A stretch of DNA of 64,000 bases, from the NCBI GenBank assembly GCA_029210695.1, contig JARGFH010000006.1, positions 29,005 to 93,004 on the forward strand. The letters are read 5' to 3'. A program made the position numbers and the translations under genes. Shown here piece after piece: positions 42,161 to 62,751 of this stretch. The notes under the pieces are model-generated. The model was not told the origin of the DNA. It did no database searches and saw only the letters and a list, made by a program, of their open reading frames with translations. The DNA is from Acidimicrobiia bacterium. Lineage in GTDB: Bacteria; Actinomycetota; Acidimicrobiia; Spongiisociales; JAHEDJ01. The first letter of the stretch is position 1. Every line of letters starts with the position of its first letter.

Positions 42161-42216
42161 CTCACGAGATCGTCGATGGGTCGGTGAGTGGTGGCCCCAG
42201 TACCAGCCAGACGATC

Positions 42217-42927: not shown

Positions 42928-43484
42928 GTTACGTCGACCAACTCGTCGAGGCCTACCGGAAGTTCGTGGCTCTCCCATGGCAGGAGAACCTGGCTCCTCC
43001 GCAACGGGTGTGGATGACCGTGTACCCACCTGAGCACGAGCGCCGACTACGACTCCATCTGCCCGCGTTCAAGGCGGCGACCACCGAACACAACCGAGCC
43101 TGGGCGCTGATCGACATCACCATCTCCTTCGAGCAGTGGATGGCCGACCACGAGTACCGAGACGCCTACTTCGAGGATCCCGAACTCTTGGAGACGGCAC
43201 TCCCTGCCTTCTTCGACCATCTTGTGGAGCATGTGCGAGCGCGTCTTGCTGAGCAACCAGATCCGAAGGGAGTTGTGGCAGTTCTCGGTGCGGGCACGCT
43301 GTTCGGTTTGGGTGACGCGGTCAAGGTGTCCGCTCTGCTCAACGCGGTCAATGATGCGGTCGCCGGCCGATTGTTGATCTTCTTTCCGGGTGAGCACGAG
43401 GGCAACAGCTATCGCCTCCTCGACGCCCGAGATGGATGGAACTACCTGGCGACGCCGATCACACCAAACGGGAGAAACGGATGA
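42924..43484 (+). CDS. brxB: BrxB-like (DUF1788) BREX protein
   Basis: 186 aa, translationally coupled between brxA and brxC. 'WMTVYPPEHERRLRLHLPAFKAA...' fits the DUF1788 size and pattern. Confidence 0.55.
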   Translation: MSYVDQLVEAYRKFVALPWQENLAPPQRVWMTVYPPEHERRLRLHLPAFKAATTEHNRAWALIDITISFEQWMADHEYRDAYFEDPELLETALPAFFDHLVEHVRARLAEQPDPKGVVAVLGAGTLFGLGDAVKVSALLNAVNDAVAGRLLIFFPGEHEGNSYRLLDARDGWNYLATPITPNGRNG

Positions 43485-46945: not shown

Positions 46946-49900
46946 TGGCGAAGACGACACCGCTCTCGCCATCGTTGCGGAAGCAACTCGAAACGGCGAT
47001 CCTGGCTGGTCGCCGTGCTGCTGAGAGTGCATCACGGGCTGCGATCGATGGGTTGGGCGTGTTCGCGGATCGGCGACCCGAGCATCTCAACTCCGAGCAG
47101 GCGTCATTGCGGGTCGGGTTGCGGACCAAGTGGCGTCAACTGGGGGATGATCGAGAGCTGCTGATCGCCGAGTGTGCATATGAGCAGTGGCACCGGCTCC
47201 TGTTCGCCCGGTTCCTCGCCGAGAATCGGCTGTTGCTCCACCCTCAGTTCCGGGCGGCGGTGACGTTGGCAGAGTGTGAGGATTTGGCTCCGGAGTTGGG
47301 TGAGCCGGATGGCTGGTCGGTGGCGGCCCGGTTTGCCTCGGAGATCCTGCCTGGAATCTTCCGGGTGGATGATCCCTGTGTCCGATTGCGGCTGGCGCCA
47401 GAAGGACGGCATGCCCTCGAGGAGATCCTGGCGGGGATCCCGCCAGAGGTGTTCCAGGCTGGCGATTCCCTGGGGTGGGTGTATCAGTTCTGGCAGAAGG
47501 ACAAGAAGGACGAGGTCAACGCATCGGAGCGGAAGATCGGCGGAGCGGATCTGGGACCGGTTACGCAGCTGTTCACCGAGAACTACATGGTCCGATTCCT
47601 CTTGGAGAACTCACTGGGGGCGTGGTGGTCGGCGCGGCATCCCGACAGCCCGCTGGTTAAGGGCTTCGACTACCTCAGACTCGATGATGAGGGTCAACCA
47701 ACAGCGGGATCGTTTGACGGGTGGCCCGATCGAGCCGCTGAGGTGACCCTGATGGACCCGTGCTGTGGGTCGGGTCACTTCCTGGTAGAGGCATTTTCGA
47801 TGTTGTGGCGGATGCGGGCCGAGGAAGAGGGGCTCAGTCCGACCGACGCGCAGGATGCGGTGTTGCGGGACAACCTGTTCGGCCTGGAGTTGGATCCCCG
47901 GTGCGTCCAGATCGCCATGATGGCGGTGGCCCTGCAGGCGTGGAAGGCAGGGGACGGGTGGCGTGAGCTGCCGGTGCCGAACATCGCCTGTTCAGGTATC
48001 CCGGTGAAAGCCCCGGTAGACGAGTGGAAGGCTCTGGCGGAGGGTGATGAGCGCCTTGAGAGCGCCCTTATCCGTCTACACATCCTGTTCCGCGAGGCCG
48101 ACACCTTCGGCAGTCTGATCGAGCCCAAGCGGGCAACTGAGATCAGCGACCCCACCCAATTGCAACAGTCGTTCGAGGATGTGGAGTGGGACGCGGTCGC
48201 TCCCCTACTCGAGAAGGCCGCATCAAGGGAGAGTAACGACCCCGCAATCGCTGTGCTCGGCGCTGACGCTGCCAGCATCGCCCGGGCCGCCGACTACCTC
48301 AGCCGTCGCTACTCCCTCGTCGCGACCAATGTCCCATACCTCGGGCGTCAGTTCATGGAGCGGCATCTACGGGACTACTGCGACCGGTACTACTCCGACG
48401 CGGCGTTTGACATCGCAACATGCTTCGTTGATCGCATGTCTCGGATGGGGGCGGTCGGATCTACCCGCGCAGTAGTGCTGCCGCAGAACTGGTTGTTCTT
48501 GGGCAGCTACTCGAAGATCCGATGTCGCCTTCTGGACGAGCTGACGTGGGCAATGTGTGTCCGCCTCGGGCCGGGTGCGTTTGAGGAGATAAGTGGCGAG
48601 GTGGTTCAGGCAAGTCTTCTGATTGCCAACGCTGGACCGCCCGATCCCGGTCATGCAATGGCGCTCTTGGACGCTCGTTCCGAGCGGCCAGCAGCTAGGA
48701 AGGCGGAAGCACTCCGCGCGGGGGCGCCGTTGTTGATCGACCAAGGCACGCAGAGATCGAACCCGGATTGCGTTGTGGCTTTCGAACTGCTCGGCACTGG
48801 CCCGCTCTTGAGCGAGTACGCCGACAGCATCCAAGGTTTCATCACTGGCGACAACGAACGATTCCGACGGTTCTTCTGGGAGATCGGGTCGCTAACGAAC
48901 GACCTCAGCTGGGATCGTATTCAGACGACGGTGAACGTCACACGGGCGTATGGAGGGCGTTCGGAGTACATGCGCTGGGAGCAAGGCCACGGGCACCTGG
49001 CGACTAGCCCGCAAGCGCGGGTCCAAGGGCTCCAGGCACGCGGTCGGCGCGGGGTCGCGCTCGCGCGGCTAGGCCAGCTCCCGGCGACTCTGTTCGATGG
49101 TGACTTCTTCTCAGACGCCGTCGGTTTGGTCGTGCCTCGCAACGAAGCCGACCTCCGCGCGGTTTGGGCGTTCTGCAGCTCGGATAGCTATTCGGCGGCT
49201 GTTCGAGCGATCAACACGAAGCTGAGCGTCGCAAACGCAACTCTCGTCAAAGTGCCATTCGACATCGACCACTGGCGCACGGTCGCCGAGGGCGCTGGTC
49301 CTCTACCGGAGCCGTGGTCGGACGATCCGACGCAGTGGCTATTCGAGGGCCGTCCGGAGTTGTCGACGGCCTCCTTGCAGGTGGCGGTAGCGAGGTTGGT
49401 GGGGTATCGCTGGCCAGAACAGCCACAGTCGGACGATCTCGAAGGGTTCGCCGACTCGGATGCGATTGTGTGCTTGCCGTCGGTGGCAGGTGAACCCCCT
49501 GCGGCCGATCGGGTGCACCGTCTGTTGGCGACGGCCTACGGGGAGGCCTGGTCGCCGGCCATGGTTAAGCGACTCCTGGAGGCGTCAGGCTCGAAGAAGA
49601 CGAGCTTGCCGGGTTGGCTGCGGGATGACTTCTTCAAACAGCACTGCGCCCTATTCGGGAACCGCCCGTTTGTCTGGCACATCTGGGATGGACAGCGTGA
49701 CGGGTTCTCGGCGTTCGTGAACTACCACCGGCTGGATCGTAAGAACCTTGAAAAGCTGACCTACACGTATCTGGGCACAGATTGGGTGGAGCGGCAGAAG
49801 GCTGAGGTGCGTGATGAGGTGGCAGGGGCGGAGGCCCGGTTGGTGGCTGCGCTGGAGCTGCAGGCCAAGTTGGAGCAGATCCTGGAGGGAGTTGCACCGT

Positions 49901-50142
49901 TCGATGTCTATGTCCGGTGGAAGGAACTGCATGAGCAGCCAATCGGGTGGGAACCTGATCTCAACGACGGGGTGCGGCTCAACATCCGTCCCTTCGTCGA
50001 GGCCGGGGTGCTGCGCTCCAAGTTCAACATCCACTGGCGTAAGGACCGAGGCAAGAACCCGGACGGGTCGGAGCGCCACAACGACGTCCAGCTCACCCTT
50101 ACCGACAAACGAACCGCACGCCAGAAAGCCGGCAAGCAATGA
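46945..50142 (+). CDS. pglX: PglX N6-adenine DNA methyltransferase of BREX
   Basis: Motif I 'LMDPCCGSGHFLVEAF' and motif IV 'LVATNVPYLG' (an NVPY variant of NPPY). ~1065 aa. Start overlaps the brxC stop (TAATG). Confidence 0.85.
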   Translation: MAKTTPLSPSLRKQLETAILAGRRAAESASRAAIDGLGVFADRRPEHLNSEQASLRVGLRTKWRQLGDDRELLIAECAYEQWHRLLFARFLAENRLLLHPQFRAAVTLAECEDLAPELGEPDGWSVAARFASEILPGIFRVDDPCVRLRLAPEGRHALEEILAGIPPEVFQAGDSLGWVYQFWQKDKKDEVNASERKIGGADLGPVTQLFTENYMVRFLLENSLGAWWSARHPDSPLVKGFDYLRLDDEGQPTAGSFDGWPDRAAEVTLMDPCCGSGHFLVEAFSMLWRMRAEEEGLSPTDAQDAVLRDNLFGLELDPRCVQIAMMAVALQAWKAGDGWRELPVPNIACSGIPVKAPVDEWKALAEGDERLESALIRLHILFREADTFGSLIEPKRATEISDPTQLQQSFEDVEWDAVAPLLEKAASRESNDPAIAVLGADAASIARAADYLSRRYSLVATNVPYLGRQFMERHLRDYCDRYYSDAAFDIATCFVDRMSRMGAVGSTRAVVLPQNWLFLGSYSKIRCRLLDELTWAMCVRLGPGAFEEISGEVVQASLLIANAGPPDPGHAMALLDARSERPAARKAEALRAGAPLLIDQGTQRSNPDCVVAFELLGTGPLLSEYADSIQGFITGDNERFRRFFWEIGSLTNDLSWDRIQTTVNVTRAYGGRSEYMRWEQGHGHLATSPQARVQGLQARGRRGVALARLGQLPATLFDGDFFSDAVGLVVPRNEADLRAVWAFCSSDSYSAAVRAINTKLSVANATLVKVPFDIDHWRTVAEGAGPLPEPWSDDPTQWLFEGRPELSTASLQVAVARLVGYRWPEQPQSDDLEGFADSDAIVCLPSVAGEPPAADRVHRLLATAYGEAWSPAMVKRLLEASGSKKTSLPGWLRDDFFKQHCALFGNRPFVWHIWDGQRDGFSAFVNYHRLDRKNLEKLTYTYLGTDWVERQKAEVRDEVAGAEARLVAALELQAKLEQILEGVAPFDVYVRWKELHEQPIGWEPDLNDGVRLNIRPFVEAGVLRSKFNIHWRKDRGKNPDGSERHNDVQLTLTDKRTARQKAGKQ

Positions 50143-52466
50143 GCGAGACGGTGCGCGATCGTCTGGCTGGCCGTCTCGGAGAGGCTCTCGAGTACAACGC
50201 CAACGCGTTTGCGCCCCCGGTGGCGCTGCTATGGCCGGATGAGGGTCGCCATTGGCAGCAGGTGATCCCTCGAATCGCCAAGGAGCGACCGGTGCTGACG
50301 CTCGGCCCATTCGACCCCGACGCGAATCGGGGACCCGCGTATTGGATTCGGTGTGTGGTTGCTGGCACGGTCGAGACCCACCTTCCGGACGGAATCCCGG
50401 TGGTCTACCTCCCTGGGGTCGGTCGGAACTCGCTCCGTGCCGTCGAATCGTGTCCCTCGGACCTTGCGCCCATCGCCGAGCTTCAGTACCGGAGCCAGTG
50501 GTTCTCACACCCGAACGGCCGCGATTGGACGGCCTGGGCCTTGCTGTCGCATGCCGAATATGGCCTCGGGCTTCGCATCACTGATAGCGCAGATGCGGTG
50601 AGCGCGCTCCAGCTCGCCCTTGATCGGCTGATGGACGAGCGGATCGATCGGCTGGAGCGGCTGGTACTCGATGCCGACTTTTTCCACGATCTGGTCAATC
50701 CCGATCCGGTGCGCAGCCTGCTCGGTTGGCTCGATGACCCGATCGACTTCAGGTCACGATTCGACGAAGCGCAATGGAGCGCGTTCCTGCAGCAGTGCAA
50801 AGCCGACTTCGGGTTCGACCCGACGCTCGATGGCGAGATCAGCGCCGCGCGCAAGCTCGGAGATCGGGAGGAAAAGTGGGGCGAGGTATGGAAGCGCTTC
50901 GCCGAGACGCCGGAGCGGTATCCGGGGATCCCCGAGCAACTCCGCAAGGCCAGGCCCCAAGAGCAGCTCACCCTTGGGGAACAAGGACACTCCGAAAGCT
51001 GGCCGCAGGACAACGAAGCAGCCGAGAAGGACCTGCGCCAACGTTTGAAGGGATTCGACAGCCTCACACCGGAGGCTGCGCGCACAGAGATAGTGAAGCT
51101 TGAAGCCTCTCATGCATGGCGGCGCAGCACCATCTGGGCCGACCTAGACCACGCCCCCCTTGCTTTTGCCCTGGAGCAGCTTGCTGCCCTAGCAGACCTA
51201 GCTATGCAGCCCCTGGCGACGGATGGTCTGACCGAACTCATCCGGGACTATGTAGACCGGGGATGGAGGGCGGACGACGCTGCCCTGCGGGCCTTGAAGG
51301 CGGTCGAGTCCGGGCCAGACCGGGAGGCGGTCGCAGTGACAATGGACGCCCTTTATCGGCCGTGGATCGATGAGGGAGCCAAGACGCTCCAGTCGATCAT
51401 CGGCCCTATGGCCAACTCCGGTACCTACGAGACCGGCGCGCCCGCCAGTCCTGCCCCAGGGACCGTCACAGTGTTCATCGACGGCCTTCGCTTGGACATC
51501 GCTCACCGGGTGAGGGAGCGGTTGGCCGCCGTGGGCCTTGACGTCGATGCCGGCATAAGCCTCGCGGCGTTGCCCACCGTCACGCAGACCGCCAAGCCGG
51601 TCCTTGCTCCAATCCCTCGGGGTGCCCTGACGGCGGGCCCCGACTTGCATCCGGCGAATTCGGTCACCGGTACGAGGGCGTCAGTCCAGGTGCTGCGCTC
51701 ACTGATGAAGGACAACGGGGTCCAAGTGCTCGACTCGACTGATGTCGGTGACCCAACCGGTACGGCATGGGCTGAGGCCGGTGAGATCGACCATCGAGGC
51801 CACGATGTCGGCAGTCGTCTCGTCGACTACCTCGATCAGGAGGTGGATCGGATCGTGGGGCGGGTCCGCGAGTTGCTAGAAGCAGGCTGGCAGAGAGTCG
51901 AGGTGGTGACCGATCACGGGTGGATACTCCTTCCCGGCGGGCTGGAAAAGGTCGATCTCCCTCCGGCCACGACCGAGGTCAAGAAGGGTCGATGCGCCCG
52001 CCTCAAGGCGGGGTCGGTCGTCGAGACGCCGACGGTGCCATGGTTCTGGGATCAGGACGTCCGGATCGCCATCGCGCCTGGCGTCACATGCTTCGAGGCC
52101 GGCAAGGAGTACGAGCACGGCGGCGTCAGCCCCCAAGAGTGCATCGTTCCTCGGCTCACCGTGACCGTCGGTGTGTCCCCGATGGCCACCGATGGACCGG
52201 AGATCACGTCAGTCAAGTGGCTGGGTCTGCTGTGCCGAATCGAGCTGACCGGTGCCGGCTCAGGTGTGATCGCGGATCTTCGGGCACTTCCTGCCGATCC
52301 AAAGACCTCCATCGCCGAAGAGGCCAAAGAGACATTCCGCGAGGGCAAGGTTTCGCTGATCGTCCCCGACGAAGAACACGAGGGCGAGCCAGCACACCTG
52401 GTACTGGTCGGTCCCGATGGTCAGATCCTGGTCCAGCGCCAGCTGATAGTGGGGAGAAACCGGTGA
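50139..52466 (+). CDS. pglZ: PglZ alkaline-phosphatase-superfamily protein of BREX
   Basis: Conserved PglZ N-terminus ('VALLWPDEGRHWQQVIP') and a C-terminal phosphatase-like 'VEVVTDHGWILLPGG'. ATGA overlap with pglX. Confidence 0.8.
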   Translation: MSETVRDRLAGRLGEALEYNANAFAPPVALLWPDEGRHWQQVIPRIAKERPVLTLGPFDPDANRGPAYWIRCVVAGTVETHLPDGIPVVYLPGVGRNSLRAVESCPSDLAPIAELQYRSQWFSHPNGRDWTAWALLSHAEYGLGLRITDSADAVSALQLALDRLMDERIDRLERLVLDADFFHDLVNPDPVRSLLGWLDDPIDFRSRFDEAQWSAFLQQCKADFGFDPTLDGEISAARKLGDREEKWGEVWKRFAETPERYPGIPEQLRKARPQEQLTLGEQGHSESWPQDNEAAEKDLRQRLKGFDSLTPEAARTEIVKLEASHAWRRSTIWADLDHAPLAFALEQLAALADLAMQPLATDGLTELIRDYVDRGWRADDAALRALKAVESGPDREAVAVTMDALYRPWIDEGAKTLQSIIGPMANSGTYETGAPASPAPGTVTVFIDGLRLDIAHRVRERLAAVGLDVDAGISLAALPTVTQTAKPVLAPIPRGALTAGPDLHPANSVTGTRASVQVLRSLMKDNGVQVLDSTDVGDPTGTAWAEAGEIDHRGHDVGSRLVDYLDQEVDRIVGRVRELLEAGWQRVEVVTDHGWILLPGGLEKVDLPPATTEVKKGRCARLKAGSVVETPTVPWFWDQDVRIAIAPGVTCFEAGKEYEHGGVSPQECIVPRLTVTVGVSPMATDGPEITSVKWLGLLCRIELTGAGSGVIADLRALPADPKTSIAEEAKETFREGKVSLIVPDEEHEGEPAHLVLVGPDGQILVQRQLIVGRNR

Positions 52467-54913
52467 GCGACCTCGACCAGCTCGACCAACTCGCCGCTCA
52501 GGTGTTCGAGGGTTACCTGGTCCGCAAGGATCTTGCCCAGCAGTTCCGCGGCCAGTACCCGGTGCCGACATACGTTGGCGAATTCCTGCTGGGTCGATAC
52601 TGCGCCACGACCGACCCCGACGAGATTGCCGAGGGGTTAGCGATCGTCGAGCGTTCCATGAAGGAGCGGACCGTCCGCGCCGGGGAGGAGGAGCTCTTCA
52701 AGTCGCGGGCACGGGAAAAGGGCCGGGTCAAGATCATCGATCTTCTCCGAGCGAAGCTCGACGCCAAAGCAGATGCCTACAAGGCAGAGATGCCCAGCCT
52801 CCAGCTCAGCGGCATCCACATCTCCGACGAGCTGGTCAACGAGCACGACCGCATGCTCACCGGCGGCTTCTATGCCGAAGTCACACTCGAGTACATCGCC
52901 GCTCTGGGCCGGGAGTCGGGAGGTCAGCCGTTCCGGGTCGAGGCGGTTCGGCCGATCCAGATGTCCACCAGGGACGCCTTGGACACGTTCGTCGCCGGCC
53001 GAAAGCGGTTCACGCTCGAGCAGTGGCGGCACCTGTTGCTACGTAGCGTCGGCTTCGAGCCCGATCGGTTCACGCCGCGGGAACAGGACGTGCTCTTGGC
53101 ACGCATGGTTCCGTTCGTCGTTCCCAACTACAACGCTGTCGAGCTGGGCCCACGTGGGACCGGCAAGTCCCATCTTTTCCAGCAGATCTCGCCATATTCC
53201 CACCTAGTTTCTGGGGGCAAAGCGACCGTCGCCAACATGTTCGTGAACAACACGACGGGCCGCAGGGGCCTCGTTGCTCAGTACGACGTGGTCTGTTTCG
53301 ACGAGGTGGCCGGCGTGTCGTTCGATACCAAGGAGGGGGTCAACATCCTGAAGGGCTACATGGAGGCGGGCGAGTTCAGCCGCGGCAAGGAGAGCATCCG
53401 CGCTGACGGCGGCATTGTCATGGTTGGCAACTTCGACGTCGACGTGGTCGAGGAGTTGCGACAAGGGCACCTGTTCGGTCCAATGCCCAAGGAGATGCGG
53501 GACGACACGGCGTTTCACGACCGGATCCACTCTTACCTGCCGGGATGGGACGTGCCCAAGCTCCACCCGTCCTACTTCACCGACCACTTCGGCTTCGTCA
53601 GCGACTTCCTCGCCGAGTGCTGGAGTCAGGTTCGTCGCACCTCGCGGCTGGACGTCACCCAGGGTCGGCTGTCGTGGGGCAGCCAGCTGAGCGGGCGAGA
53701 CCGCAAGGCGGCCGATAACACGGTCAATGGATTGCTGAAACTCCTTTGGCCTGACCCGGAGATGGACGTATCGGACGAGGCGCTTGCCTGGGCTGCCGAG
53801 CTTGCGCTGGAGCTTCGTCGCCGCGTCAAGGAGCAGCAGGCATTCATCGGCGCCGCTGAGTTTGGGAAGGTCGACCTGAGCTACCGCATCGGTGACGGTC
53901 CCGAGAAAGTTGTTTACTGCGAGGAGAGCGTCCGTCACCGACTTCGAATGGAATCCGAGGAGAAGGCTGGCGGGCCTGAGAGAACGCCGTCGCTGCCGAT
54001 CCCCGAGCCAGACGAAGTCACAACTGGCAGCGCGGCAAGGCACTACGCACCCGGTGACGAGATCGACGGACGTTTCGAGGTTCTTGAGGTGCTCGGCGAG
54101 GGTGGCTTCTCCAGGGTCTACAAGGTCGTTGATCTCGTGGAAGGCGAACAGCGGGCCTTGAAACTGTTCGAGAGCGCCGCCGGCTATGAGGCGGTCCGTC
54201 GTGAGATCGGCGCTTTGCGCATGGTCCATCACCCCAATGTCGTTACGGTCTTCTGGGCCGACAAGACCGCGGACGGGGACTGGTACCTCGTTTCGGAGTT
54301 CATCGACGGCGAGTCACTGGAGGAGTACACGTCGGGCGACCGACACCTTCGGGATCGAGAGGCGATCGACGTGGCACTCGACGTGCTCGATGCGCTGGTG
54401 GCCATTCACCCCGACGCCGTCCGTCTCTCAGAGCTTGAGGAGAAGCGCCGGGGCGGTGAGCTGTCTCAGGACGAGTACTACGAGATGCAGGAGCTGCAAG
54501 AGCACGGCCTCGTCCACCGAGACATCAAGCCCCTGAACATCATCCTCACCCGCCAAGGAGCCAAGCTGCTCGACTTCAACATCGCATCCCGAGTCGGTGA
54601 CCCCGTGAAGACCCTGTCGGGGACACCCCCGTATCAGGCCCCGGATGCCGACTACACCCGGTGGGACGTGACGACGGATTTGTTCGCCGTCGGAGTCGTC
54701 TTGTACGAGCTGCTCTGCAACGGAGAGCACCCGTACCCCGGTGGCAAGCCCATGGTTGGCGAAGCAGTTCGAGATCCACGGTCGGTCCGCCCTGATCTCA
54801 GCGCCGACCTGGCGAAGTTCCTCGTCAAGGCGTGCGCACCAGCTCGCAGTGATCGATTCATCACCGCTCAGGAGATGAAGGGCGCGCTCGAGGAAAGTCG
54901 AGCTACCGGGTGA
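52463..54913 (+). CDS. brxL: BrxL-like AAA+ (MCM/Lon-related) ATPase fused to a C-terminal Hanks-type Ser/Thr protein kinase domain
   Basis: GTG start overlapping the pglZ stop (GTGA). The N-terminal ~480 aa match BrxL ('YVGEFLLGRYCATTDPDEI', Walker A 'ELGPRGTGKSHLF', 'VVCFDEVAGV', 'RELALELRRRVKEQ'). The C-terminal ~290 aa (from ~54030) carry kinase subdomains: 'LGEGGFSRVYKV', 'ALKLF', 'HRDIKPLNIIL', 'DFN', 'GTPPYQAPD'. No Lon S16 protease domain is present. Confidence 0.8.
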   Translation: MSDLDQLDQLAAQVFEGYLVRKDLAQQFRGQYPVPTYVGEFLLGRYCATTDPDEIAEGLAIVERSMKERTVRAGEEELFKSRAREKGRVKIIDLLRAKLDAKADAYKAEMPSLQLSGIHISDELVNEHDRMLTGGFYAEVTLEYIAALGRESGGQPFRVEAVRPIQMSTRDALDTFVAGRKRFTLEQWRHLLLRSVGFEPDRFTPREQDVLLARMVPFVVPNYNAVELGPRGTGKSHLFQQISPYSHLVSGGKATVANMFVNNTTGRRGLVAQYDVVCFDEVAGVSFDTKEGVNILKGYMEAGEFSRGKESIRADGGIVMVGNFDVDVVEELRQGHLFGPMPKEMRDDTAFHDRIHSYLPGWDVPKLHPSYFTDHFGFVSDFLAECWSQVRRTSRLDVTQGRLSWGSQLSGRDRKAADNTVNGLLKLLWPDPEMDVSDEALAWAAELALELRRRVKEQQAFIGAAEFGKVDLSYRIGDGPEKVVYCEESVRHRLRMESEEKAGGPERTPSLPIPEPDEVTTGSAARHYAPGDEIDGRFEVLEVLGEGGFSRVYKVVDLVEGEQRALKLFESAAGYEAVRREIGALRMVHHPNVVTVFWADKTADGDWYLVSEFIDGESLEEYTSGDRHLRDREAIDVALDVLDALVAIHPDAVRLSELEEKRRGGELSQDEYYEMQELQEHGLVHRDIKPLNIILTRQGAKLLDFNIASRVGDPVKTLSGTPPYQAPDADYTRWDVTTDLFAVGVVLYELLCNGEHPYPGGKPMVGEAVRDPRSVRPDLSADLAKFLVKACAPARSDRFITAQEMKGALEESRATG

Positions 54914-55027
54914 ATCTCATCTATCGAACCGGACGCCTACCCATGGGAGGGAGACGCTCGGGTGACAAATTGGCAGCGGTCATAATCACGGACATGTACG
55001 CGGCAACGTCGATCCCAGGAAGTCAGC

Positions 55028-57526
55028 ATGTGGCGCCGCGTTGATCTGCACAACCATACATTCCCAAATGAAACCTGCGACACAGAGTGGGACCCAGATC
55101 ACTTCGTCGCGTCCTGTGCTGATGTGGGCATCGACGTCATCGCAGTCACTGACCACGACACGTGCGATCGCGTGGCTGACGTCGTGGCTGCCGCCGGCGA
55201 CGTCGTCCACGTAGTTCCCGGTGTCGAACTCACTACTGACAGAGGGCACATCATCGCTCTTGGGCCCGGTGATGGGGGCCTGGCGATCGTCGAGGAGCTT
55301 CTCACCCGAGTAGGCGCGAGGCCCGGAGAGCAGGTCGATCTGCTTCGGCTGTTTGAGGCGCTCTCTGAGAATTGCAGCACTGGGCAGCCCTTCGCCTCGG
55401 CCATCGTGGTCATCGGAGCCCACGTCGATATGGACGGTCAGCTGCTCGGCTCTCCGAATTCGTTGAGTATCGAACGGCAACTTCGGTACGCCGGTCAGCT
55501 AGATGCTCTAGAGGTGGCCCGTGACGAGGTATTCGCCGAGTGGGTCCGCACTGGCGTGAAACAGGGACCGCACATGACCCTCCTGCGCGGTTCAGACGCT
55601 CATGATCCGGAAAACCGCAGAGATGTTGGGCAGTGGCTTTACCTTCCTGAGCTGTCGGCGGCGGCGTTCCATCACGCTCTGGCTCTGCCTGAGGCTTCCG
55701 TCAGGTACGAACAGCCCGATCCACCGCCAACATGGGTTATCGAGGCGGTCGAGTTTGACGGCGGCATGCACGAAGGGCATGTGTTCGCCTTCTGCGAACG
55801 AACCAACGCCGTCATCGGCCCACCAAACTCTGGGAAGTCGCTGCTCATCGACGCGCTGAAGTTCGCGTTCGGTATCGCCTGTGACCTAGACGAGGTCGAG
55901 GCCATCACGAAGAACCGAATGGCGAAGTGCCTACCGGCCGGGACGATCATATCCGTACGGCTACGCACAGCCGACGGACCGACCACTATCACGCGAACGG
56001 TGGGAGGTGCCGAAAGCCCCGACCCCCCATTTCAGCCGATTGTGTTCAGCCAGACTGAATTGACCCGACGTGCGCACGAGCCACGGCCGAGCATTCGACT
56101 GCTCGACGTGCACTGCCCCGATGCTGCCTCTATGAAGATCAGCCTATCGGAGGTACAAGGTGAGGTTGTCGATCTGTTCGTGAGGCTCGTCGCTGATGCC
56201 AAAGAGATCCGTCGTCTGGCCGGGCTCATCGGCAACACTGAGGATGGGCTGGCAGCAACGCGTAACCGGCTGCAGAACTTGGCCGGCACAGAGGAAGTCG
56301 CACAGACTGCCACGGCGACCTCCCGGGTTGGTCGGTGGCGCGCCAGCACACGGGAGCGCCTCGAAATGTGGCGTGATGAAGCCGAGCCACCAAGTCCGGA
56401 CGTACCCCGAGTGCCTGACGGCGTTGCTGGCCACGAAACGCTGGCTCCGCTGGTCCCCGGCGATCGGCTCACCGCTGCCATTGAGGCCTATGAACGGGAG
56501 GCTCGCGAGCTGATAGCCCGCCACGCCGAGTTGATGCTGAGTTCACTGGATGAGAGATCAGCTGACTTCGAGGCCATGAGTCGGGACGTGGTGGCGAAGC
56601 TTGCCGAGGCCGGCTTCAGTGAAGGATCGGAAGTGGAGATCGAGCTGAAGCGACTCCGAGATCGTCTACACGAAATGGAGGAGCTGGATGAACAGCGTCG
56701 CGAACTCGAAGAGGCTCTGGACGCTGATCTTGTGAACCTTCGCAATCTCATCCAGCGTGCCGCGGAGCTGCGATCCGCGCTAACCCGGGTTCGCAAGGAG
56801 GCTTGCACCCGGGTCAATGCCTCGATGCGCACCTTCTTCGCCCTGATCGACGGCGAGGGCGCCGCGGGCCGTCTTGATGAGATTATCAATGATCTGAAGA
56901 TCGGGACGTACATGCGGCCTGAGACCCGGAAGAAGATACGGGAGGAGCTTGACCGGCCAGCGCTACTTGAACAAGCAGTACGGCTCGCACAAGGTCGATT
57001 GACGGACACCGACGACGCATCGGACCAGGAGAGACTGGTTAGCCAAGCGATGGAGCGTGAGCGCCACCAGGATCTGGCGAGGCTTGCGACGACGTGGCCC
57101 GGAGACGGCCTTGATCTCCGAAAGAAGGGTGGCAGCGGCGCCGACACAGCGTCGTTCAATGAGCTGACGGAAGGGCTGCGCGCCCTGGCCATCAAGGAGA
57201 TCTCGTTCGCGGCATCCGAGCTTCCGGTTGTCACGGACCAACCGGAGGACGCAGTCCCGACCCGCGCCGTCTATGACAGCCTTGTACCAACTCTGCGCGA
57301 GCAGCGTGCAATCAGACAATTCATCGTCGTCAGTCACGACGCCAACCTTGTAGTTGCCAGCGACATGGAAAGCGTGACGGCCTTGGAGGGAGCCGATGAC
57401 GGAAGCCCGTACAGCGGATCCCTATTCGATCGCCGCATTCGGGACCTCGCTCTGGAGCACCTGGAAGGCGGAATCGAGGCGTTCGATCGCCGAGCCACGC
57501 GCTACGGACGACCTCTACCCGCGTGA
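55028..57526 (+). CDS. Ppl-like protein: N-terminal PHP phosphoesterase domain + SMC/RecF-type ABC ATPase with coiled coil
   Basis: PHP motifs 'DLHNHT', 'IAVTDHD' and 'HVVPGVELTT'. Walker A 'IGPPNSGKSLLIDALKFAFG'. A long charged coiled-coil region. C-terminal Walker B/D-loop 'RQFIVVSHDANLV'. Confidence 0.65.
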   Translation: MWRRVDLHNHTFPNETCDTEWDPDHFVASCADVGIDVIAVTDHDTCDRVADVVAAAGDVVHVVPGVELTTDRGHIIALGPGDGGLAIVEELLTRVGARPGEQVDLLRLFEALSENCSTGQPFASAIVVIGAHVDMDGQLLGSPNSLSIERQLRYAGQLDALEVARDEVFAEWVRTGVKQGPHMTLLRGSDAHDPENRRDVGQWLYLPELSAAAFHHALALPEASVRYEQPDPPPTWVIEAVEFDGGMHEGHVFAFCERTNAVIGPPNSGKSLLIDALKFAFGIACDLDEVEAITKNRMAKCLPAGTIISVRLRTADGPTTITRTVGGAESPDPPFQPIVFSQTELTRRAHEPRPSIRLLDVHCPDAASMKISLSEVQGEVVDLFVRLVADAKEIRRLAGLIGNTEDGLAATRNRLQNLAGTEEVAQTATATSRVGRWRASTRERLEMWRDEAEPPSPDVPRVPDGVAGHETLAPLVPGDRLTAAIEAYEREARELIARHAELMLSSLDERSADFEAMSRDVVAKLAEAGFSEGSEVEIELKRLRDRLHEMEELDEQRRELEEALDADLVNLRNLIQRAAELRSALTRVRKEACTRVNASMRTFFALIDGEGAAGRLDEIINDLKIGTYMRPETRKKIREELDRPALLEQAVRLAQGRLTDTDDASDQERLVSQAMERERHQDLARLATTWPGDGLDLRKKGGSGADTASFNELTEGLRALAIKEISFAASELPVVTDQPEDAVPTRAVYDSLVPTLREQRAIRQFIVVSHDANLVVASDMESVTALEGADDGSPYSGSLFDRRIRDLALEHLEGGIEAFDRRATRYGRPLPA

Positions 57527-57597
57527 TGGAGGATCGTGCGGATTATGCATGCTGACCTGCGCTGGTTGCTTGCAGCTGATGAGACGTCTACTCGAAG

Positions 57598-59271
57598 TCA
57601 ACGTGGCACCCAGCTCCATCGCCCTCTCCGGCTTCCGTACCAGGGCCGGAGGTGGAGACGAGCTGGGTGAAAGTTCCCGTAGACGAGGACACCGGTGCCG
57701 GTGTTAGAGCGGCGGAGGTCGGCGGTGGTGGCGAGGGGTCGATGCCGGGTGGATTCGGTGACGCTCTCTCGTCCGTCTGCGTTGCGGGTGCGGGAGTTCT
57801 CGAGGGTGGTTTCGTCGCCGATGAGTCGGCTGATGTAGTCGAGGGTTGGGGTGTCGGAGATGCCGGCGAGGACGACCTTGGCCCGGTGGTTGTTGATGAC
57901 GGTTTGGGCGAAGGTGCCGTAGCGGGCCTGGATCTGGGCGAAGTCTTGCCAGACGGTGACGAGTTGGATCCCCACCCCGCGGGCGGTGGAGGCGAGTTGG
58001 GCGAGGTCGGGGAGGGGGGCGATGTTGGCGGCCTCGTCGATGACCAGCAGGAGGGGTTTGGTGAGTCGGCTGCTGGCCCGGTTGGCGCGGTCGTAGACCC
58101 GGGCGACTATCTGTTCGATGAGGGCGGTGAACAGTGGCCGGAGGCGGGCTTGTTCGTGGAGGGGCCCACAGATGTAGAGGGTGTGGTTGCCGCCGTCGAG
58201 GAGCCGGTCGGGGTCGATGATTGGTTGGCGGATCGTGGTGGCGAGGACTCCGGGGTCTGAGAAGGCGGCGAGGACGGTTTCGGCTGTGGTGTAGGCGGAG
58301 GACCGGGTGCGTTCTTCCCGGTTGATCGACGCGGCGAATGCTTGGAGGGCGTCGATCTCTTTCGCCTGGTGGAGGGCTTGGAGGGGTTCTTGTTCGTCTT
58401 GGAGGTCGACCCAGCGGATGACGTCGGCCATGCCGGCGCTGCTGGTGGCGGCGGCGTAGAGGAGGGGTGCGAGGAGTTTCTGGGCGACGGCGTACCAGAA
58501 GTCGGAGTCTTGGAGTCCGCCTCGTTCTCCGGCTCGGGCGGTGGAGGCGAGCCAGGCGGCCATGCGTAGGGCTCCCTGCCAGTCGTGGGCTGAGTGGAGC
58601 GGTGACCAGCCGGCGGAGGGTTCGTCTGTCGATCCGACCGGGTCGAATACCCAGGTTTCGCCGACGGAGCGACGCTGGTTGATGGTGTGTTCGAGGAGGT
58701 CGCCTTTGACGGAGGTGGCGATGACGGGTCCGTCCCATTCGAGGAGGGCGGGGATGGCGAAACCGGTGGTCTTTCCGGTGCCGGCTGGTCCGATCACGGC
58801 GACGGAGTGTTGGGCTTCGGTGGCGACGAGTCTTCGCTGGACGGTGCCGAGGGTGAGGCGTCCGGGTTGGGGTCTGCGGACGAGGAGAGGTTTGAGGTCG
58901 CCGGGTTTGGCCCATCGGGCGGAATCTCCATCTGACGAGTTTCGATGCCGGTCGTGCCAGCGGTAGCCGACCGCGCCGACGGCGGCCAGGACGGCGACGA
59001 GAACGGTGAGAGCGGCGTAATAGGGGAGCGGCGCCGGAAGCAGGTGGGTGACGGCGGGTGGCCAGGATTCGTTGGGTCTGGCCGGATTGGTGAGGAGTCT
59101 CCAAACGATGAGAGGGCCCTCGGAGAGAGGAACGGGCAGCCACGTGCCGCTCCAGAGACGGGCAGCGACCTGGCCGGCGGCCCACACCACCGCGCACGCC
59201 GCTACCACGGCGGCGGTGACGATGGTCAGAACCTTTTCGCCGTCGGGGTTGGCAGATGCCGGGTGGGTCAT
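57598..59271 (-). CDS. type IV coupling protein (TraD/VirD4/TcpA-like T4CP)
   Basis: N-terminal TM helices and Walker A 'VIGPAGTGKTTGFAIPALLEW'. The ORF extends to 59361, but the Met at 59271 gives a 4-nt coupling with the upstream gene. Confidence 0.85.
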   Translation of the reverse strand: MTHPASANPDGEKVLTIVTAAVVAACAVVWAAGQVAARLWSGTWLPVPLSEGPLIVWRLLTNPARPNESWPPAVTHLLPAPLPYYAALTVLVAVLAAVGAVGYRWHDRHRNSSDGDSARWAKPGDLKPLLVRRPQPGRLTLGTVQRRLVATEAQHSVAVIGPAGTGKTTGFAIPALLEWDGPVIATSVKGDLLEHTINQRRSVGETWVFDPVGSTDEPSAGWSPLHSAHDWQGALRMAAWLASTARAGERGGLQDSDFWYAVAQKLLAPLLYAAATSSAGMADVIRWVDLQDEQEPLQALHQAKEIDALQAFAASINREERTRSSAYTTAETVLAAFSDPGVLATTIRQPIIDPDRLLDGGNHTLYICGPLHEQARLRPLFTALIEQIVARVYDRANRASSRLTKPLLLVIDEAANIAPLPDLAQLASTARGVGIQLVTVWQDFAQIQARYGTFAQTVINNHRAKVVLAGISDTPTLDYISRLIGDETTLENSRTRNADGRESVTESTRHRPLATTADLRRSNTGTGVLVYGNFHPARLHLRPWYGSRRGRWSWVPR

Positions 59272-59732
59272 CGGCCGATGCCACCTTGCCGGGTCTCTCG
59301 GTGTGGCCGGCGGTGGTCGGTGTCGAGGGCGCGGAGGAGCGGGATTTGACAGGCGCCGCATCGGCAGGCACGCGGGGTGGGTTGGGTCCAGGCGTCGGGC
59401 CAGTAGGGGATCGTGGTGACACAGGGTGTGCAGAGGGCGTGGCTGCCGAGCAGCGGGATGAGCGTGTATTCGTCGTCGACGGGGATCTGGCTGTTACACA
59501 GGTCACAGATCCACAGGCTGTTGTCGTCGGGGACGCTGCTGATGATGACCACGCCGAGACGTTCCATCTCCTCGCGGATGCCGGCTTCGGCGGCGACACG
59601 GCGCCGGTAGGTCTCGCGGTGGGCGGCGGGTCGGACTATGAACCGCAACTCGTTCCGACACGGCTCGCAGAGACCCTGAGGTGTGAGGCGAGCCGACGTG
59701 TCGCAGCTTCGGCAGGTGTCGTTGGAGTTCAT
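59268..59732 (-). CDS. Cys-rich protein with four CxxC pairs (two putative zinc ribbons)
   Basis: 'CRSCDTS...CEPCRNE', 'CDLCNSQ', 'CTPC', 'CRCGAC'. ATG at 59732. It sits in the conjugation operon with 4-nt overlaps on both sides. Confidence 0.5.
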   Translation of the reverse strand: MNSNDTCRSCDTSARLTPQGLCEPCRNELRFIVRPAAHRETYRRRVAAEAGIREEMERLGVVIISSVPDDNSLWICDLCNSQIPVDDEYTLIPLLGSHALCTPCVTTIPYWPDAWTQPTPRACRCGACQIPLLRALDTDHRRPHRETRQGGIGR

Positions 59733-60043
59733 CGTTCGAGTCCTCGTCCGGTCGGGGTGTCGAGTGACCGATGCCGTGGGCTGTTGACGATTTCGGCGGT
59801 GAGGAGGAGGCCTGCGACGCGGTCGTCGGCTGCGAGTTGGTCCCATTGGTTGATGACGGTCGCGGCGAAGCCAGAAAGGGGATGTGACGAGGACTGGAGT
59901 GCTTGTGTGATCCGGTCCCTTTCGTCCGCCTCTAGGTGGAGGGATGGGTCGGTGATCCCTCGGTCTGGGTCGGTGAGGGCGGTGAGGGCGTTCCCGATCC
60001 GTTCCCTGGTGAGGATGTCGGTTGGGGCGGGATGACTTGGCAT
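59729..60043 (-). CDS. hypothetical protein, conjugation-operon member
   Basis: 104-aa ORF, translationally coupled to the downstream Cys-rich gene. Confidence 0.4.
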   Translation of the reverse strand: MPSHPAPTDILTRERIGNALTALTDPDRGITDPSLHLEADERDRITQALQSSSHPLSGFAATVINQWDQLAADDRVAGLLLTAEIVNSPRHRSLDTPTGRGLER

Positions 60044-60055
60044 GGTGTGGCTCCT

Positions 60056-61258
60056 TTAGTGGGTGCAGCCGCTGGTGGCGGCGGTGACGGGGCTGAGTCC
60101 GATGCCGGTCCACCAGGCCTCGAGAGGTTCCTGGGGGCAGAGCAGGGCGCCGTTCGGGTTGCGGATCTGGAAGTGGAGGTGGGGGCTGGCCGAGTTGCCG
60201 GTGTTGCCCGACGTCATGATCAGTTGGCCTGCGGTCACTTCGGTTCCGGGTTGGACGGCGACCCCGGTGCCGTGGCAGTAGGTGTAGCGGTGGTTGTCGA
60301 GACCGGTGACGGTGACTCCCCAGCCGCATTTGCAGGTGGCGCACGGCCGGTAGACGCCTGTGACGGTGCCGGGGTGGGCGGCGTAGACCGGGGTGGATTC
60401 GGGGACACCAAGGTCGGAGGCGGGGTAGTCGTGGTGGCTGCGGCGGATCATCTCGACGGTGACCGAGTCGACCGGGAGGGGGAAGACGTAGACGCCGTCG
60501 GCGGTGATGGCACCTTGGGTGAACCGGAAGGTCCGGTAGTAGTCGACCCACCCGGTCACGGTGGCGACGTATTCGGCTGAATTGTTGTAGCGGCGTAATG
60601 CGGCTTCGAGGTCGGTCGGGTTGGTGTAGTCGCCGGGGCGGGTGAGACAGAGGTGAGCAACGGTGCCGAGGGAGGCGTCGAACACGTTGTGTGGGTCGGC
60701 GACGCCGTCACCGTTGCCGTCCTGTCCGTAGGCTCGCCATGAGCCGGGGAGGAACTGGGCTGGTCCGACGGCCCGGTCCCAGGTCGGGTCGCCGTCGAGT
60801 AGGCCATCGTCGGTGTCGGGTATGACGGCGGTACCGGGGTGGGAGCCGTCGAGGGTGATCCCATAGAGGGGAGGGGTCACCTGCCCGGAGGGGTCGACGG
60901 TGCGTCCACCGTGCGTGGCGTGGTTGGATTCGACCTTCCAGATCCCGGCGACGACCGGCCAGTCAACCACACAACCCTCTGCGACCGAGGCGGCGTTGGT
61001 TTCGGCGGCGATGTAGGCGGAGAACACCACCGGTGGGATGCCGAGAGCCCCACCAGCGGCGGCCGCCGGTGAGCCGGCGACCACAGCCGCGACCCCCAGC
61101 ATCACGATGAGGATGACCAAGCCGAGCGGGGCGGTGACGATCCCAACGACGATGATGACCCGCCACAGGCCAGACCCGCGGTTGTGTTCAGCGAGTTTGT
61201 CGGCCAGTTTCTTCTTGGCGAGGTGGGTGGCGGCCTTGGCGACGAGTTGGAAGCTCAT
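60056..61258 (-). CDS. bifunctional cell-wall hydrolase: lytic transglycosylase (SLT-like) + M23 peptidase
   Basis: N-terminal TM helix. SLT-like 'IWKVESNHATHGG' and 'AVGPAQFLPGSWRAYG'. M23 'GNTGNSASPHLHFQIR'. Confidence 0.8.
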   Translation of the reverse strand: MSFQLVAKAATHLAKKKLADKLAEHNRGSGLWRVIIVVGIVTAPLGLVILIVMLGVAAVVAGSPAAAAGGALGIPPVVFSAYIAAETNAASVAEGCVVDWPVVAGIWKVESNHATHGGRTVDPSGQVTPPLYGITLDGSHPGTAVIPDTDDGLLDGDPTWDRAVGPAQFLPGSWRAYGQDGNGDGVADPHNVFDASLGTVAHLCLTRPGDYTNPTDLEAALRRYNNSAEYVATVTGWVDYYRTFRFTQGAITADGVYVFPLPVDSVTVEMIRRSHHDYPASDLGVPESTPVYAAHPGTVTGVYRPCATCKCGWGVTVTGLDNHRYTYCHGTGVAVQPGTEVTAGQLIMTSGNTGNSASPHLHFQIRNPNGALLCPQEPLEAWWTGIGLSPVTAATSGCTH

Positions 61259-62751
61259 GCCGGGGTCCTCCTACTGGCCTGTTGCCATGCGGCGGCGGCG
61301 AGCCCTGGTGGCGGCTGGGGCTTCTTGTGGGGCAGGTTGGGGACTTCGGCGGCGGCTTCTCTGACGGTGTGGGTGACGCCGAGGCCGGTGAGACCGCCGG
61401 ATTGGTAGGGACGGATCCAGGTGGCGCCGTGTGAGCCGCCGATGCGGTTGCCTTCGAGGCGGGCCAGGGTGGAGTCGGCGAACCGGGCGGAGATGTCGAG
61501 CAGCTGGCGTCGTCCAACGGCCATGACGGCCATGAAGAAGATCACCAGCAGGAACCTGGTCCACATACCGCCGGCCACACTCAACAGCCCGTTGAGGCCG
61601 GTGACCAGCAGCGCCAAGAAGACGCCCATCACGATTACGAGGGCGACCACCCGCACCAGGGCGGCCACCCAATGCCAGAGAAGTGACCGTCCTGCGCCGG
61701 GGAACAGCCCGGCGTACAGCGCGATGGGGAGGAGGGCGATGAGGAACAGGGCGAGGCCTTTGGCGACGACCAGGGTGAAGGCGGTGATGACGAACAGGGC
61801 GAGGGCGGCGGCGGCGACCACCAGGTAGAGCAGCGACCCGACCAGCCGGCTCACCGACGCTTCGGCGTTGAATGAGGCGTTGGTTTCGCAACCGGCGGCC
61901 TCCATGAGTTGGCGGGGGGTGTCGTCGAAGCTGTGAGGTCCAGACGCCAACGCCTGGTTACGAGCGTCGGCACATGAACCTGGGGGGAGGGGCTGGCCCC
62001 AGTTGATGGTGTCGTAGGGGTCCCGGACGAACCCGGCCATCAACGCCGCACCAACCCGGTCGGAGATGTCGCCTCCTTGGTCGGTGTCGGCGGCGAGGGA
62101 GACGATCTCAGCTGAGATCCCACCGGCAACCTGCATCGTTGCAGTGACTGCGCCGCCGAACCCCGACCCGGTAGAGATCGAGACGAGAACGGCGAACACG
62201 ATGAGCGTCACCGCGAACTCTCCCGCACCCGCACCGACCCTCCCCCGCAGGAACTGGAAGCCCATGTACAGCGCGGAGACGACCAGGCCGAGGTGTGACA
62301 GTCGCATCGGCCCGAGCACCCGACCGTCGAGGAGGTCGGCGACGGTGGTGGCGGCGTCGGTCAACGCTGCTTCGATGACGAACCCGGCCGCGGTCTCCAA
62401 CAGCCAGATCGCCACTGCCACCAGTAGCTTGGCGATCGAGAAGACCAGGTCGGTGGCGGTCCCGATCGTCACGCAGGCGACGTCGCCTACGAACCCGGCG
62501 TTGGAACAGCCGATGTCGTAGCGGCCGATCCCAACAATCCCATTCGTCTCGCTGGTGGGGTAGTCGGTGGGCGGGTACAGCTCCTCACCCAACTCGACGC
62601 CCGGGGCCGGTCCGGTTTGGGCGTGTGCGGGGGGTGCCGACACGATTCCGGCGACGACGACGACTGCGACCAGCCACATGAAAACCCATCCCCACCCGTC
62701 CAATACCTGTGACCGGCGACCGCGCCTGGCGGTGTCCTGGCCACGGGTCAC
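61255..62751 (-). CDS. VirB6/TrbL-like polytopic membrane protein of conjugative T4SS
   Basis: 498 aa with ~8 TM helices. Located between the VirB4-like ATPase and the hydrolase with overlapping stops. Confidence 0.55.
   Translation of the reverse strand: MTRGQDTARRGRRSQVLDGWGWVFMWLVAVVVVAGIVSAPPAHAQTGPAPGVELGEELYPPTDYPTSETNGIVGIGRYDIGCSNAGFVGDVACVTIGTATDLVFSIAKLLVAVAIWLLETAAGFVIEAALTDAATTVADLLDGRVLGPMRLSHLGLVVSALYMGFQFLRGRVGAGAGEFAVTLIVFAVLVSISTGSGFGGAVTATMQVAGGISAEIVSLAADTDQGGDISDRVGAALMAGFVRDPYDTINWGQPLPPGSCADARNQALASGPHSFDDTPRQLMEAAGCETNASFNAEASVSRLVGSLLYLVVAAAALALFVITAFTLVVAKGLALFLIALLPIALYAGLFPGAGRSLLWHWVAALVRVVALVIVMGVFLALLVTGLNGLLSVAGGMWTRFLLVIFFMAVMAVGRRQLLDISARFADSTLARLEGNRIGGSHGATWIRPYQSGGLTGLGVTHTVREAAAEVPNLPHKKPQPPPGLAAAAWQQASRRTPA

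Follow-up and report, generated by a model that had tools for sequence, protein, structure and literature searches.

A PHP-ATPase gene beside a BREX locus on a conjugative element of an Acidimicrobiia bacterium: a divergent relative of Ppl and TrlF

Introduction

Ppl was found as a single-gene anti-phage defence by Gao et al. (2020) and has been validated by experiment; it is described as restricting T7 and as being countered in turn by Bas63 gp130. According to secondary descriptions (PMC12904381, and the title of Xu et al., Mol Cell 2026), the E. coli protein is a 3'-5' exonuclease of single-stranded DNA (ssDNA), inhibited by nucleoside triphosphates (NTPs) and activated by 3'-OH ends. The former source attributes the inhibition to NTPs bound to both the PHP and the NTPase domains, and the activation to NTP depletion combined with 3'-OH DNA ends that a phage homing endonuclease generates. 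We analysed a gene which resembles ppl and is found at 55028..57526 (+) in a 64,000-nucleotide stretch of an Acidimicrobiia bacterium (assembly GCA_029210695.1, contig JARGFH010000006.1, positions 29,005 to 93,004); this whole stretch is called the window below, and all positions refer to it unless another locus is named. A preliminary description, made from the sequence alone, had proposed that the gene codes for a PHP domain fused to an ABC/SMC-type ATPase with a long coiled coil, that it matches Ppl, and that its place right after a bacteriophage exclusion (BREX) locus fits a defence island.

Architecture of the protein

The open reading frame (ORF) specifies 832 amino acids from an ATG start, the stop codon being included in its coordinates (ORF listing). 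The following parts were recognized in it:

55028..55702 (+), PHP phosphoesterase domain, aa 1-~225 (Pfam, NCBIfam, profile and Foldseek matches)
55733..56122 (+), ATPase head, N-terminal lobe, aa 236-365 (Pfam SMC_N, AAA_21, AAA_29; Foldseek)
55817-55840 (+), Walker A GPPNSGKS, aa 264-271 (conserved motif)
56045-56062 (+), Q-loop FSQTEL with Q342 (conserved motif)
56123..56824 (+), antiparallel coiled-coil insertion, aa 366-599, ~230 residues (AlphaFold2, Foldseek, hhalign)
56825..57523 (+), ATPase head, C-terminal lobe, aa 600-832 (best-matching region to the Ppl, TrlF and Spaf_1101 models)
57164-57181 (+), signature-like LTEGLR, aa 713-718, which precedes Walker B (conserved motif)
57224-57250 (+), Walker B P733-VVTDQPED-741 with D737 and E740 (conserved motif)
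57320-57340 (+), H-loop FIVVSHD, aa 765-771, with switch histidine H770 (conserved motif)
57461-57505 (+), superfamily C-terminal motif LEGGxxAFxxRxxRY (conserved motif)

The proposed fusion of a PHP domain to an ABC/SMC-type ATPase with a coiled coil was borne out by profile, structure and alignment. The N-terminal part gives weak but consistent matches to Pfam PHP and to the NCBIfam models for CehA/McbA metallohydrolase and RNase RNM. When compared with solved PHP enzymes, the family profile matches 9etk (E 1.6e-10) and RNase AM (7ug9), and in a residue-level alignment the HxH, TDHD, GVE and GSDxH motifs superpose on those of RNase AM. Foldseek, run on the same part, returned 7ug9 again, 3e0f and EndoQ (5zb8), with BAD_1165 named among the matches. 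The metal ligands are H8, H10, (E15), H43, E67, H74, H132, D190 and H192, where H8-N-H10 is at nt 55049-55057 and H43 belongs to a T41-D-H43-D44 string. H8, H10, H43, E67, H74, H132, D190 and H192 are invariant or nearly so in the clade to which the protein belongs (hereafter the query clade) and are kept in Ppl and TrlF. The alignment thus finds all the ligands conserved, no catalytic His or Asp of the PHP domain being missing, and the metal-binding site is, as judged from sequence, complete.

In the ATPase part, G264, P266, G269, K270 and Q342 are invariant in the query-clade alignment. Foldseek matches the N-terminal lobe to the heads of SMC, JetC, Rad50 and RecN; for the whole ATPase part the best match is an Smc head with its coiled coil (5xei, 1.4e-9), further matches being to JetC, condensin/cohesin, LmuB, RecN, Rad50 and RecF. 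The long coiled coil of the preliminary description appears in the AlphaFold2 model as helices at aa 366-401, 408-451, 478-527 and 533-599, which make up a hairpin going up along 366-451 and down along 478-599, with a Pro-rich apex at ~aa 452-477. There is no Cys in aa 440-490 around this apex and so no zinc hook. The strings HxH, DHD, GPPNSGKS and FIVVSHD, quoted earlier, are all present, but the last one had been mistaken for a Walker B/D-loop: FIVVSHD is the H-loop, and the true Walker B is VVTDQPED. Sequence matches to designed PPR proteins were set aside, being due to the composition of the helical region. Neither sequence search nor Foldseek turned up a solved structure that covers a PHP-ATPase over its full length.

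The Walker B sequence D-Q-P-E (aa 737-740) is a superfamily-wide feature that puts a Gln at the position of the canonical ABC catalytic Glu. It resembles the hydrolysis-deficient E-to-Q mutants used experimentally, and may be related to the NTP-sensor role proposed for the head; E740 might substitute for the canonical Glu.

Reality of the gene and its start

The ORF is confirmed as a real gene, as opposed to a chance ORF in high-GC DNA, because it has ~40 full-length homologues (37-66% identity) in which conservation is centred on the motifs, an AGGAAG Shine-Dalgarno-like element 5 nt before the ATG (55017-55022 (+), by reading of the sequence), an N-terminus, MWRxCDLHxH, kept in 28 of 29 aligned homologues, and a confident AlphaFold2 model (family alignment; mean pLDDT, the predicted local distance difference test score, 89.8; predicted template modelling score, pTM, 0.75). 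A near-identical GenBank protein from an Acidimicrobiia metagenome-assembled genome (MAG) (P0001; 99% identity) is annotated as a 'hypothetical protein' of 784 aa that begins at an internal GTG, codon 49. This start is 48 codons late, so that the PHP domain loses its HxH and TDHD motifs; the ATG at 55028 is favoured since homologues keep the N-terminus (MWR..DLHNHT) and since the AGGAAG element precedes it. Antisense ORFs lying over the gene (e.g. 56488-57234, 248 aa) were treated as shadows of a high-GC gene. An Rfam scan of 54000-58500 gave no match, and a promoter/terminator scan of 54600-57900 found nothing useful, as it relied on a sigma-70-type consensus that is uninformative for actinobacterial promoters.

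Homology to Ppl and TrlF

In a PADLOC scan Ppl was the top match (E 3.7e-26, 89.5 bits). This match is in two pieces, one at each end; measured on a separately built Ppl profile of 893 positions, they span 7-315 and 741-890, or ~51% of it. With the curated NCBIfam models the order is TrlF (NF045780, 198.2 bits, E 3.3e-58, cut-off 350), then Ppl (NF042955, an equivalog model, 101.5 bits, cut-off 1000), then Spaf_1101 (NF045781, 84.2 bits, cut-off 475, the match being limited to the C-terminal ~100 residues). By any curated NCBIfam threshold, the query is neither Ppl nor TrlF. For calibration, annotated reference proteins from plasmids were run through the same models, with the following outcome in bits:

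E. coli Ppl: NCBIfam Ppl 1330, NCBIfam TrlF 477, PADLOC Ppl (PDLC02208) 1826
A. pittii Ppl: NCBIfam Ppl 1078, NCBIfam TrlF 501
N. vulgaris TrlF: NCBIfam Ppl 516, NCBIfam TrlF 627, PADLOC Ppl 453
Gordonia plasmid homologue: NCBIfam Ppl 210, NCBIfam TrlF 330, PADLOC Ppl 157
Query: NCBIfam Ppl 101.5, NCBIfam TrlF 198, PADLOC Ppl 89.5
Other query-clade members: PADLOC Ppl 82-120

By these calibrated scores, Ppl is a subfamily nested in a broader superfamily of TrlF-type PHP-ATPases, and the query is an outlier of that superfamily. Profile-profile comparison by hhalign aligned the query clade end to end with a profile of 18 Ppl-family proteins, the majority of which carry the name Ppl in a source (789 columns, probability 100%, E 2.4e-48), and slightly better with a profile of 14 TrlF-family proteins (probability 100%, E 3.3e-54, 801 columns); the coiled coils of the two sides are aligned as well. 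BLASTP against E. coli Ppl yields two collinear high-scoring segments at the two ends (29% and 27% identity), the C-terminal one pairing residues 606-825 with 675-888. From these comparisons, homology with Ppl and TrlF over the entire length is practically certain. Of the earlier statement that the gene matches Ppl, the homology therefore stands (Ppl as top PADLOC match, hhalign E 2.4e-48), while membership in Ppl does not (101.5 against 1000 bits, and a position outside the Ppl+TrlF group in the tree described below).

The likeness to Ppl extends to the order of the parts (a PHP domain whose ligands are the same, then Walker A, Q-loop, coiled coil, signature, a DQPE-type Walker B, H-loop and EGGxxAFxxR) and to the occurrence as a single gene on mobile DNA beside other defence genes. 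The query is nevertheless ~60 residues shorter, has GPPNSGKS, LTEGLR and DAVP where Ppl has GSRGSGKS (Walker A), ASPGQK (signature) and DDLD (D-loop), and belongs to a clade hosted by uncultured Actinomycetota and Chloroflexota, unlike Ppl, whose hosts are E. coli and other Gammaproteobacteria. The TrlF family, whose model also recognizes Ppl, outscores the other curated families and gives the strongest profile-profile alignment, with the same architecture and catalytic motifs; its genes are found on plasmids among toxin-antitoxin and nuclease genes. It differs from the query by the same motifs as Ppl does, and the query falls under the family cut-off. Literature searches found no publication describing the function of TrlF: the 'TrlF' of the literature is an unrelated tropolone thioesterase, and the other returns concerned laser spectroscopy (TRLFS).

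The fold of the ATPase part raises the question of a different function, that of a housekeeping DNA-repair enzyme. The protein would then be a single-chain analogue of SbcCD/Mre11-Rad50, having a PHP nuclease in place of Mre11/SbcD, and would process DNA ends or hairpins in double-strand-break repair. The structures closest to the ATPase part are indeed SMC, Rad50, RecN and RecF heads with coiled coil, there is a weak match to the NCBIfam Rad50 model (25.8 bits), and RefSeq attaches the Gene Ontology term 'double-strand break repair' to the Gordonia homologue. However, the best profiles are not those of SbcC or RecN: Rad50/SMC-type NCBIfam models, like RecN, give ~19-26 bits for cut-offs of at least 700 (Rad50 25.8, cut-off 700; SMC 18.8, cut-off 729), as compared to 198 for TrlF and 101 for Ppl. 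Moreover, the apex has neither zinc hook nor Cys, and the characterized relative, Ppl, is a defence protein. PADLOC and Pfam scans found no SbcD/Mre11-like neighbour of the gene in the window. Together with the distribution and the neighbourhoods described below, which are the opposite of those of a conserved repair gene, this makes a repair role very unlikely.

More generally, Rad50/SbcC, SMC, RecN, JetC (Wadjet) and LmuB (Lamassu) share with the query the fold of the ATPase head and the insertion of a coiled coil between the Walker A and the signature/Walker B lobes, but the likeness in sequence is confined to the P-loop region (19-26 bits). They use separate nuclease or kleisin partners, whereas the nuclease of the query is fused and of PHP type; in addition, when compared to Rad50 and SMC, the query has no zinc hook or hinge, and DQPE instead of DE in Walker B. 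The PADLOC matches to LmuB reach 13-26 bits, most of them in the P-loop region (~aa 236-327) and one in a stretch of the coiled coil. None of the Lamassu and Wadjet partner genes (LmuA/LmuC, JetA/B/D) was found in the window or in the flanking ORFs scanned at other loci, so that the likeness is at the level of fold only.

A separate and rare clade

An exhaustive HMMER search of 1.84 billion representatives reached the outgroups, while a word-indexed homologue search with the family profile recovered only clade members. At E≤1e-30 the HMMER search returned 1148 representatives; among the 150 top-ranking ones listed, the majority are 855-915 aa long and aligned end to end. The scores leave a gap between the full-length representatives of the clade itself (~770-1270 bits) and all others (≤328 bits). 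BLASTP assigned 41 full-length sequences to the query clade, including the 99%-identical copy of the query, and, among the relatives that come next, placed 95 nearest to the Gordonia type.

An example of the latter is an 'AAA family ATPase' (WP_338857833) from plasmid p1 of Gordonia hongkongensis, actinobacterial and plasmid-borne, and the type it stands for is the nearest outgroup (26% identity over the full length, E 4e-45). The Gordonia type forms a distinct monophyletic clade, and, unlike the query clade, retains the signature Gln, a Walker A of the GxxGxGKS form and, in most cases, the Asp of the D-loop. It has at least 95 full-length representatives at 50% identity (L012 4974-7598; P0066-P0176) and is just under the TrlF cut-off (330 versus 350 bits). 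Its annotation goes no further than 'AAA family ATPase' and the double-strand-break-repair term, which looks like a gap in the annotation of what is probably a defence family.

A neighbour-joining tree of 109 sequences, i.e. a distance tree without bootstrap values, has the topology (((Ppl,TrlF),Gordonia-type),query clade), each of the four groups being monophyletic. The mean distances from the query clade are 0.93 to Ppl/TrlF and 0.89 to the Gordonia type, and Ppl and TrlF are 0.74 apart. The exact branching order among the four clades is provisional, but by these sequence comparisons the query clade is to be seen as separate, deep and previously unnamed. Common to all four clades are the PHP ligands, the Walker A Lys, the Q-loop Gln, the H-loop His, the EGG..AF..R motif and the Walker B D-Q-P-E. 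Three motifs set the query clade apart from Ppl/TrlF: Walker A (GPPNSGKS versus G[SG]RG[ST]GKS), the signature (LTEGLR versus [AG]SPGQK, with loss of the Gln) and the D-loop (DQPEDAVP versus DQPEDDLD, an Asp to Pro change). In ABC ATPases the residues of Walker A, signature and D-loop line the dimer interface of the ATP sandwich. Because the changed motifs are those that line this interface, we infer that nucleotide-dependent engagement of the heads is probably tuned differently in the query clade than in Ppl.

With one genome taken per species, full-length copies were found in about a dozen of 185,579 species, from two phyla. All carriers are MAGs assigned to Acidimicrobiia/Ilumatobacter, to other Actinomycetota or to Dehalococcoidia/SAR202; in a Nitriliruptoraceae MAG there is only a C-terminal match, at a contig end. 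Such a very sparse spread across phyla is one of the reasons, announced above, for doubting a function in repair.

Genomic context

The gene is flanked in the window by the following features:

36294-38243 (-), ArdC-primase (Pfam ArdcN, DNAG_N and Toprim)
38705-41824 (+), TrwC relaxase (Pfam TrwC)
42106..54913 (+), complete BREX type 1 locus with BrxA, BrxB, BrxC, PglX, PglZ and BrxL-kinase (PADLOC)
57598-59361 (-), coupling protein of a type IV secretion system (T4SS) (Pfam T4SS-DNA_transf, TraG-D_C)
57598..63998 (-), with the coupling protein, M23/SLT hydrolase, TrbL/VirB6 and a VirB4-like ATPase (Pfam Peptidase_M23/SLT_2, TrbL, AAA_10)

The part of the window from 36294 to 64000 is the backbone of a conjugative element, in which BREX and the PHP-ATPase gene are cargo inserted between the relaxase and the coupling protein. 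A GC content of 61-64% for BREX and the PHP-ATPase gene, as opposed to 67-68% for the transfer genes, fits this status. The placement right after BREX was described correctly: the BREX type 1 locus is directly upstream on the same strand and ends 114 nt before the gene, with PADLOC scores of 254 (BrxA), 219 (BrxB), 1342 (BrxC), 1274 (PglX), 850 (PglZ) and 704 bits (BrxL). As to the defence island, the adjacent BREX supports it, but this is only part of the picture: BREX and the gene are cargo carried by a conjugative element, and elsewhere in the clade the pairing with BREX is not seen again.

The BrxL of this locus (52463-54913 (+)) is peculiar. It carries Pfam BrxL_N and BrxL_ATPase followed by Pkinase, a Ser/Thr protein kinase, and is without the usual Lon-protease-like C-terminal domain, positions 4-501 of the 680 of the PADLOC BrxL profile being covered. 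Elsewhere, a kinase is characteristic of type 2 BREX (PglW). BrxL homologues are present in 352 PLSDB plasmids, and none of these matches reaches into the kinase part. The mechanical start of this ORF, 51920, overlaps pglZ, and the GTG at 52463 is the likely real start. Other observations concern the same mobile region: a 1122-aa ORF at 28638-32006 (+) with LysM as its sole detectable domain, and a 440-aa ORF at 33714-35036 (-) without Pfam match. The window also has a DUF4238 gene at 32431-33456 (-), ~22 kb upstream of the PHP-ATPase gene. On an E. coli IncF plasmid, too, a genuine ppl has a DUF4238 gene as its direct neighbour (L009 675-1676); the nearness of DUF4238 to Ppl-type genes may be a coincidence or may reflect a recurrent defence-island neighbour.

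Given its position, the gene could be a BREX accessory or effector, co-transcribed after brxL, that would supply the DNA-degrading step which BREX lacks. It is on the same strand and begins 114 nt past the end of brxL, with neither a terminator nor a sigma-70 promoter predicted in between; BREX loci host embedded accessory defence genes, and one clade member (L004) is near BrxE, BrxA and BrxB. However, the promoter scan used a sigma-70-type consensus only, which is weak evidence in an actinobacterium. When all the BREX and conjugative-element proteins of the window were compared by tblastn with 38 other loci, BREX was found near none; the six BREX proteins had no match adjoining any other clade locus, and pooled neighbour scans showed no recurrent BREX family. 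Moreover, the BREX type 1 gene set is complete without the PHP-ATPase gene, and Ppl acts as a single gene. Conserved linkage to BREX was rejected on the tblastn result, and we hold a role as BREX accessory to be highly unlikely. The L004 arrangement is unusual in itself: at 3647-7674 it comprises an integrase, BrxE, BrxA and a 433-aa protein which joins BrxB with an ABC_tran/SMC_N ATPase domain, a BREX-like grouping next to the clade member.

The surroundings of the other clade members vary. There are T4SS genes and an integrase at L001, T4SS and Tad pilus genes at L002, an integrase at L004 together with the Brx genes just mentioned, integrases at L005 and L006, a PIN/Phd toxin-antitoxin pair at L007, and Dcm/NgoMIV/Vsr with large helicases at L008. 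No conserved partner family emerged from 126 flanking ORFs at 14 loci, the commonest, integrase, accounting for 3 of the 126. Since there is no recurrent partner, since only about a dozen species carry it and since its neighbours are variable and often mobile, the gene of the query clade stands alone, is rare, has a patchy occurrence in two phyla and frequently lies on mobile DNA or close to it. The link with conjugative and integrative elements and the variable neighbours are also what one would not expect of a conserved repair gene.

Another possibility is that the gene serves the conjugative element, as an anti-plasmid or element-competition nuclease which, in an exclusion-like manner and with a purpose like that of Wadjet or Lamassu, would act on incoming single-stranded or small circular DNA. 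In the window it lies between the relaxase/BREX side and the T4SS coupling protein, and L001 and L002/L022 are beside T4SS genes too, which makes three independent loci with such adjacency. In addition, the fold resembles JetC and LmuB, with weak PADLOC matches to the latter, and a 3'-OH-sensing ssDNA exonuclease would in principle recognize the free 3' end of the transferred strand. On the other hand, tblastn with the conjugative-element proteins of the window found T4SS proteins in L001 and L002/L003/L022 only, and at most clade loci the nearest 10 kb contain no genes for conjugation. Wadjet and Lamassu have nuclease or kleisin partners, of which no counterpart is present here, and the LmuB matches are mostly limited to the P-loop region. 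We consider this reading unlikely, and in any case it would be one form of the defence explanation and not a real rival to it.

Proposed function

We think it probable that the PHP-ATPase gene is a stand-alone, mobile member of the Ppl/TrlF superfamily of nuclease-ATPases, which would protect the host or the conjugative element against phages or invading DNA. A role in defence or against mobile genetic elements, taken by itself, is a reasonably likely one; that the mechanism would follow Ppl in detail is possible, but we put this at somewhat less than an even chance. Because the query keeps every catalytic and nucleotide-binding element as well as the same architecture, a Ppl-like logic is still the best-supported model. 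In such a model, the ATPase heads and the coiled coil would serve as a sensor of NTPs and DNA ends, and the protein would be kept inactive at normal cellular NTP levels. Upon infection, NTP depletion and exposed 3'-OH ends of DNA would activate it, and the PHP domain would then act as a 3'-5' exonuclease, degrade DNA and halt replication of the invader. The changed Walker A, signature and D-loop suggest that the head-head interface and details of the regulation may differ from those of Ppl.

Several points weigh against this assignment. The kinship with Ppl is remote, with ~22-29% identity, 5-10% of the profile score of a true Ppl and scores below all three curated cut-offs, so that transfer of function and mechanism is uncertain. 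In the tree the query clade is outside the Ppl+TrlF group, and precisely the ATP-sandwich motifs are changed, with loss of the signature Gln and replacement of the D-loop Asp by Pro. Signs of defence around the clade members are modest: the 126 flanking ORFs of the 14 loci include scattered restriction-modification components, and many neighbours are housekeeping genes. The defence phenotype of the query clade would thus be inferred by analogy with E. coli Ppl, and the Ppl mechanism on which the analogy draws comes from secondary descriptions.

A bolder view would make of the query clade a functionally distinct branch of PHP-ATPases, in which the nucleotide sandwich is rewired (LTEGLR, D-loop Pro and GPPNSGKS, in addition to the DQPE Walker B of the whole superfamily) and the sensor gated differently. 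Its repeated occurrence next to T4SS genes suggests, as a second possibility, that its natural target would be the free 3'-OH end of incoming conjugative ssDNA, the protein being an exclusion nuclease on integrative and conjugative elements of uncultured Actinomycetota and Chloroflexota. We regard this as quite unlikely.

Significance

The query is a divergent relative of a known defence type, and no concept in the field is changed by it; most likely, if the analogy holds, it is another stand-alone DNA-degrading defence gene and not something fundamentally new. A practical outcome is the correction of the GenBank annotation, in which the protein is hypothetical and its start late. If the proposed function is true, the NCBIfam models for Ppl, TrlF and Spaf_1101 would leave out two or more clades of some size, among them the query clade and the larger Gordonia type, and single-gene nuclease defence of the Ppl type would reach beyond Gammaproteobacteria to uncultured Acidimicrobiia and Dehalococcoidia. 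The clade-specific changes at the ATP-dimer interface would then be natural variants for understanding how the sensing of NTPs gates the PHP exonuclease.

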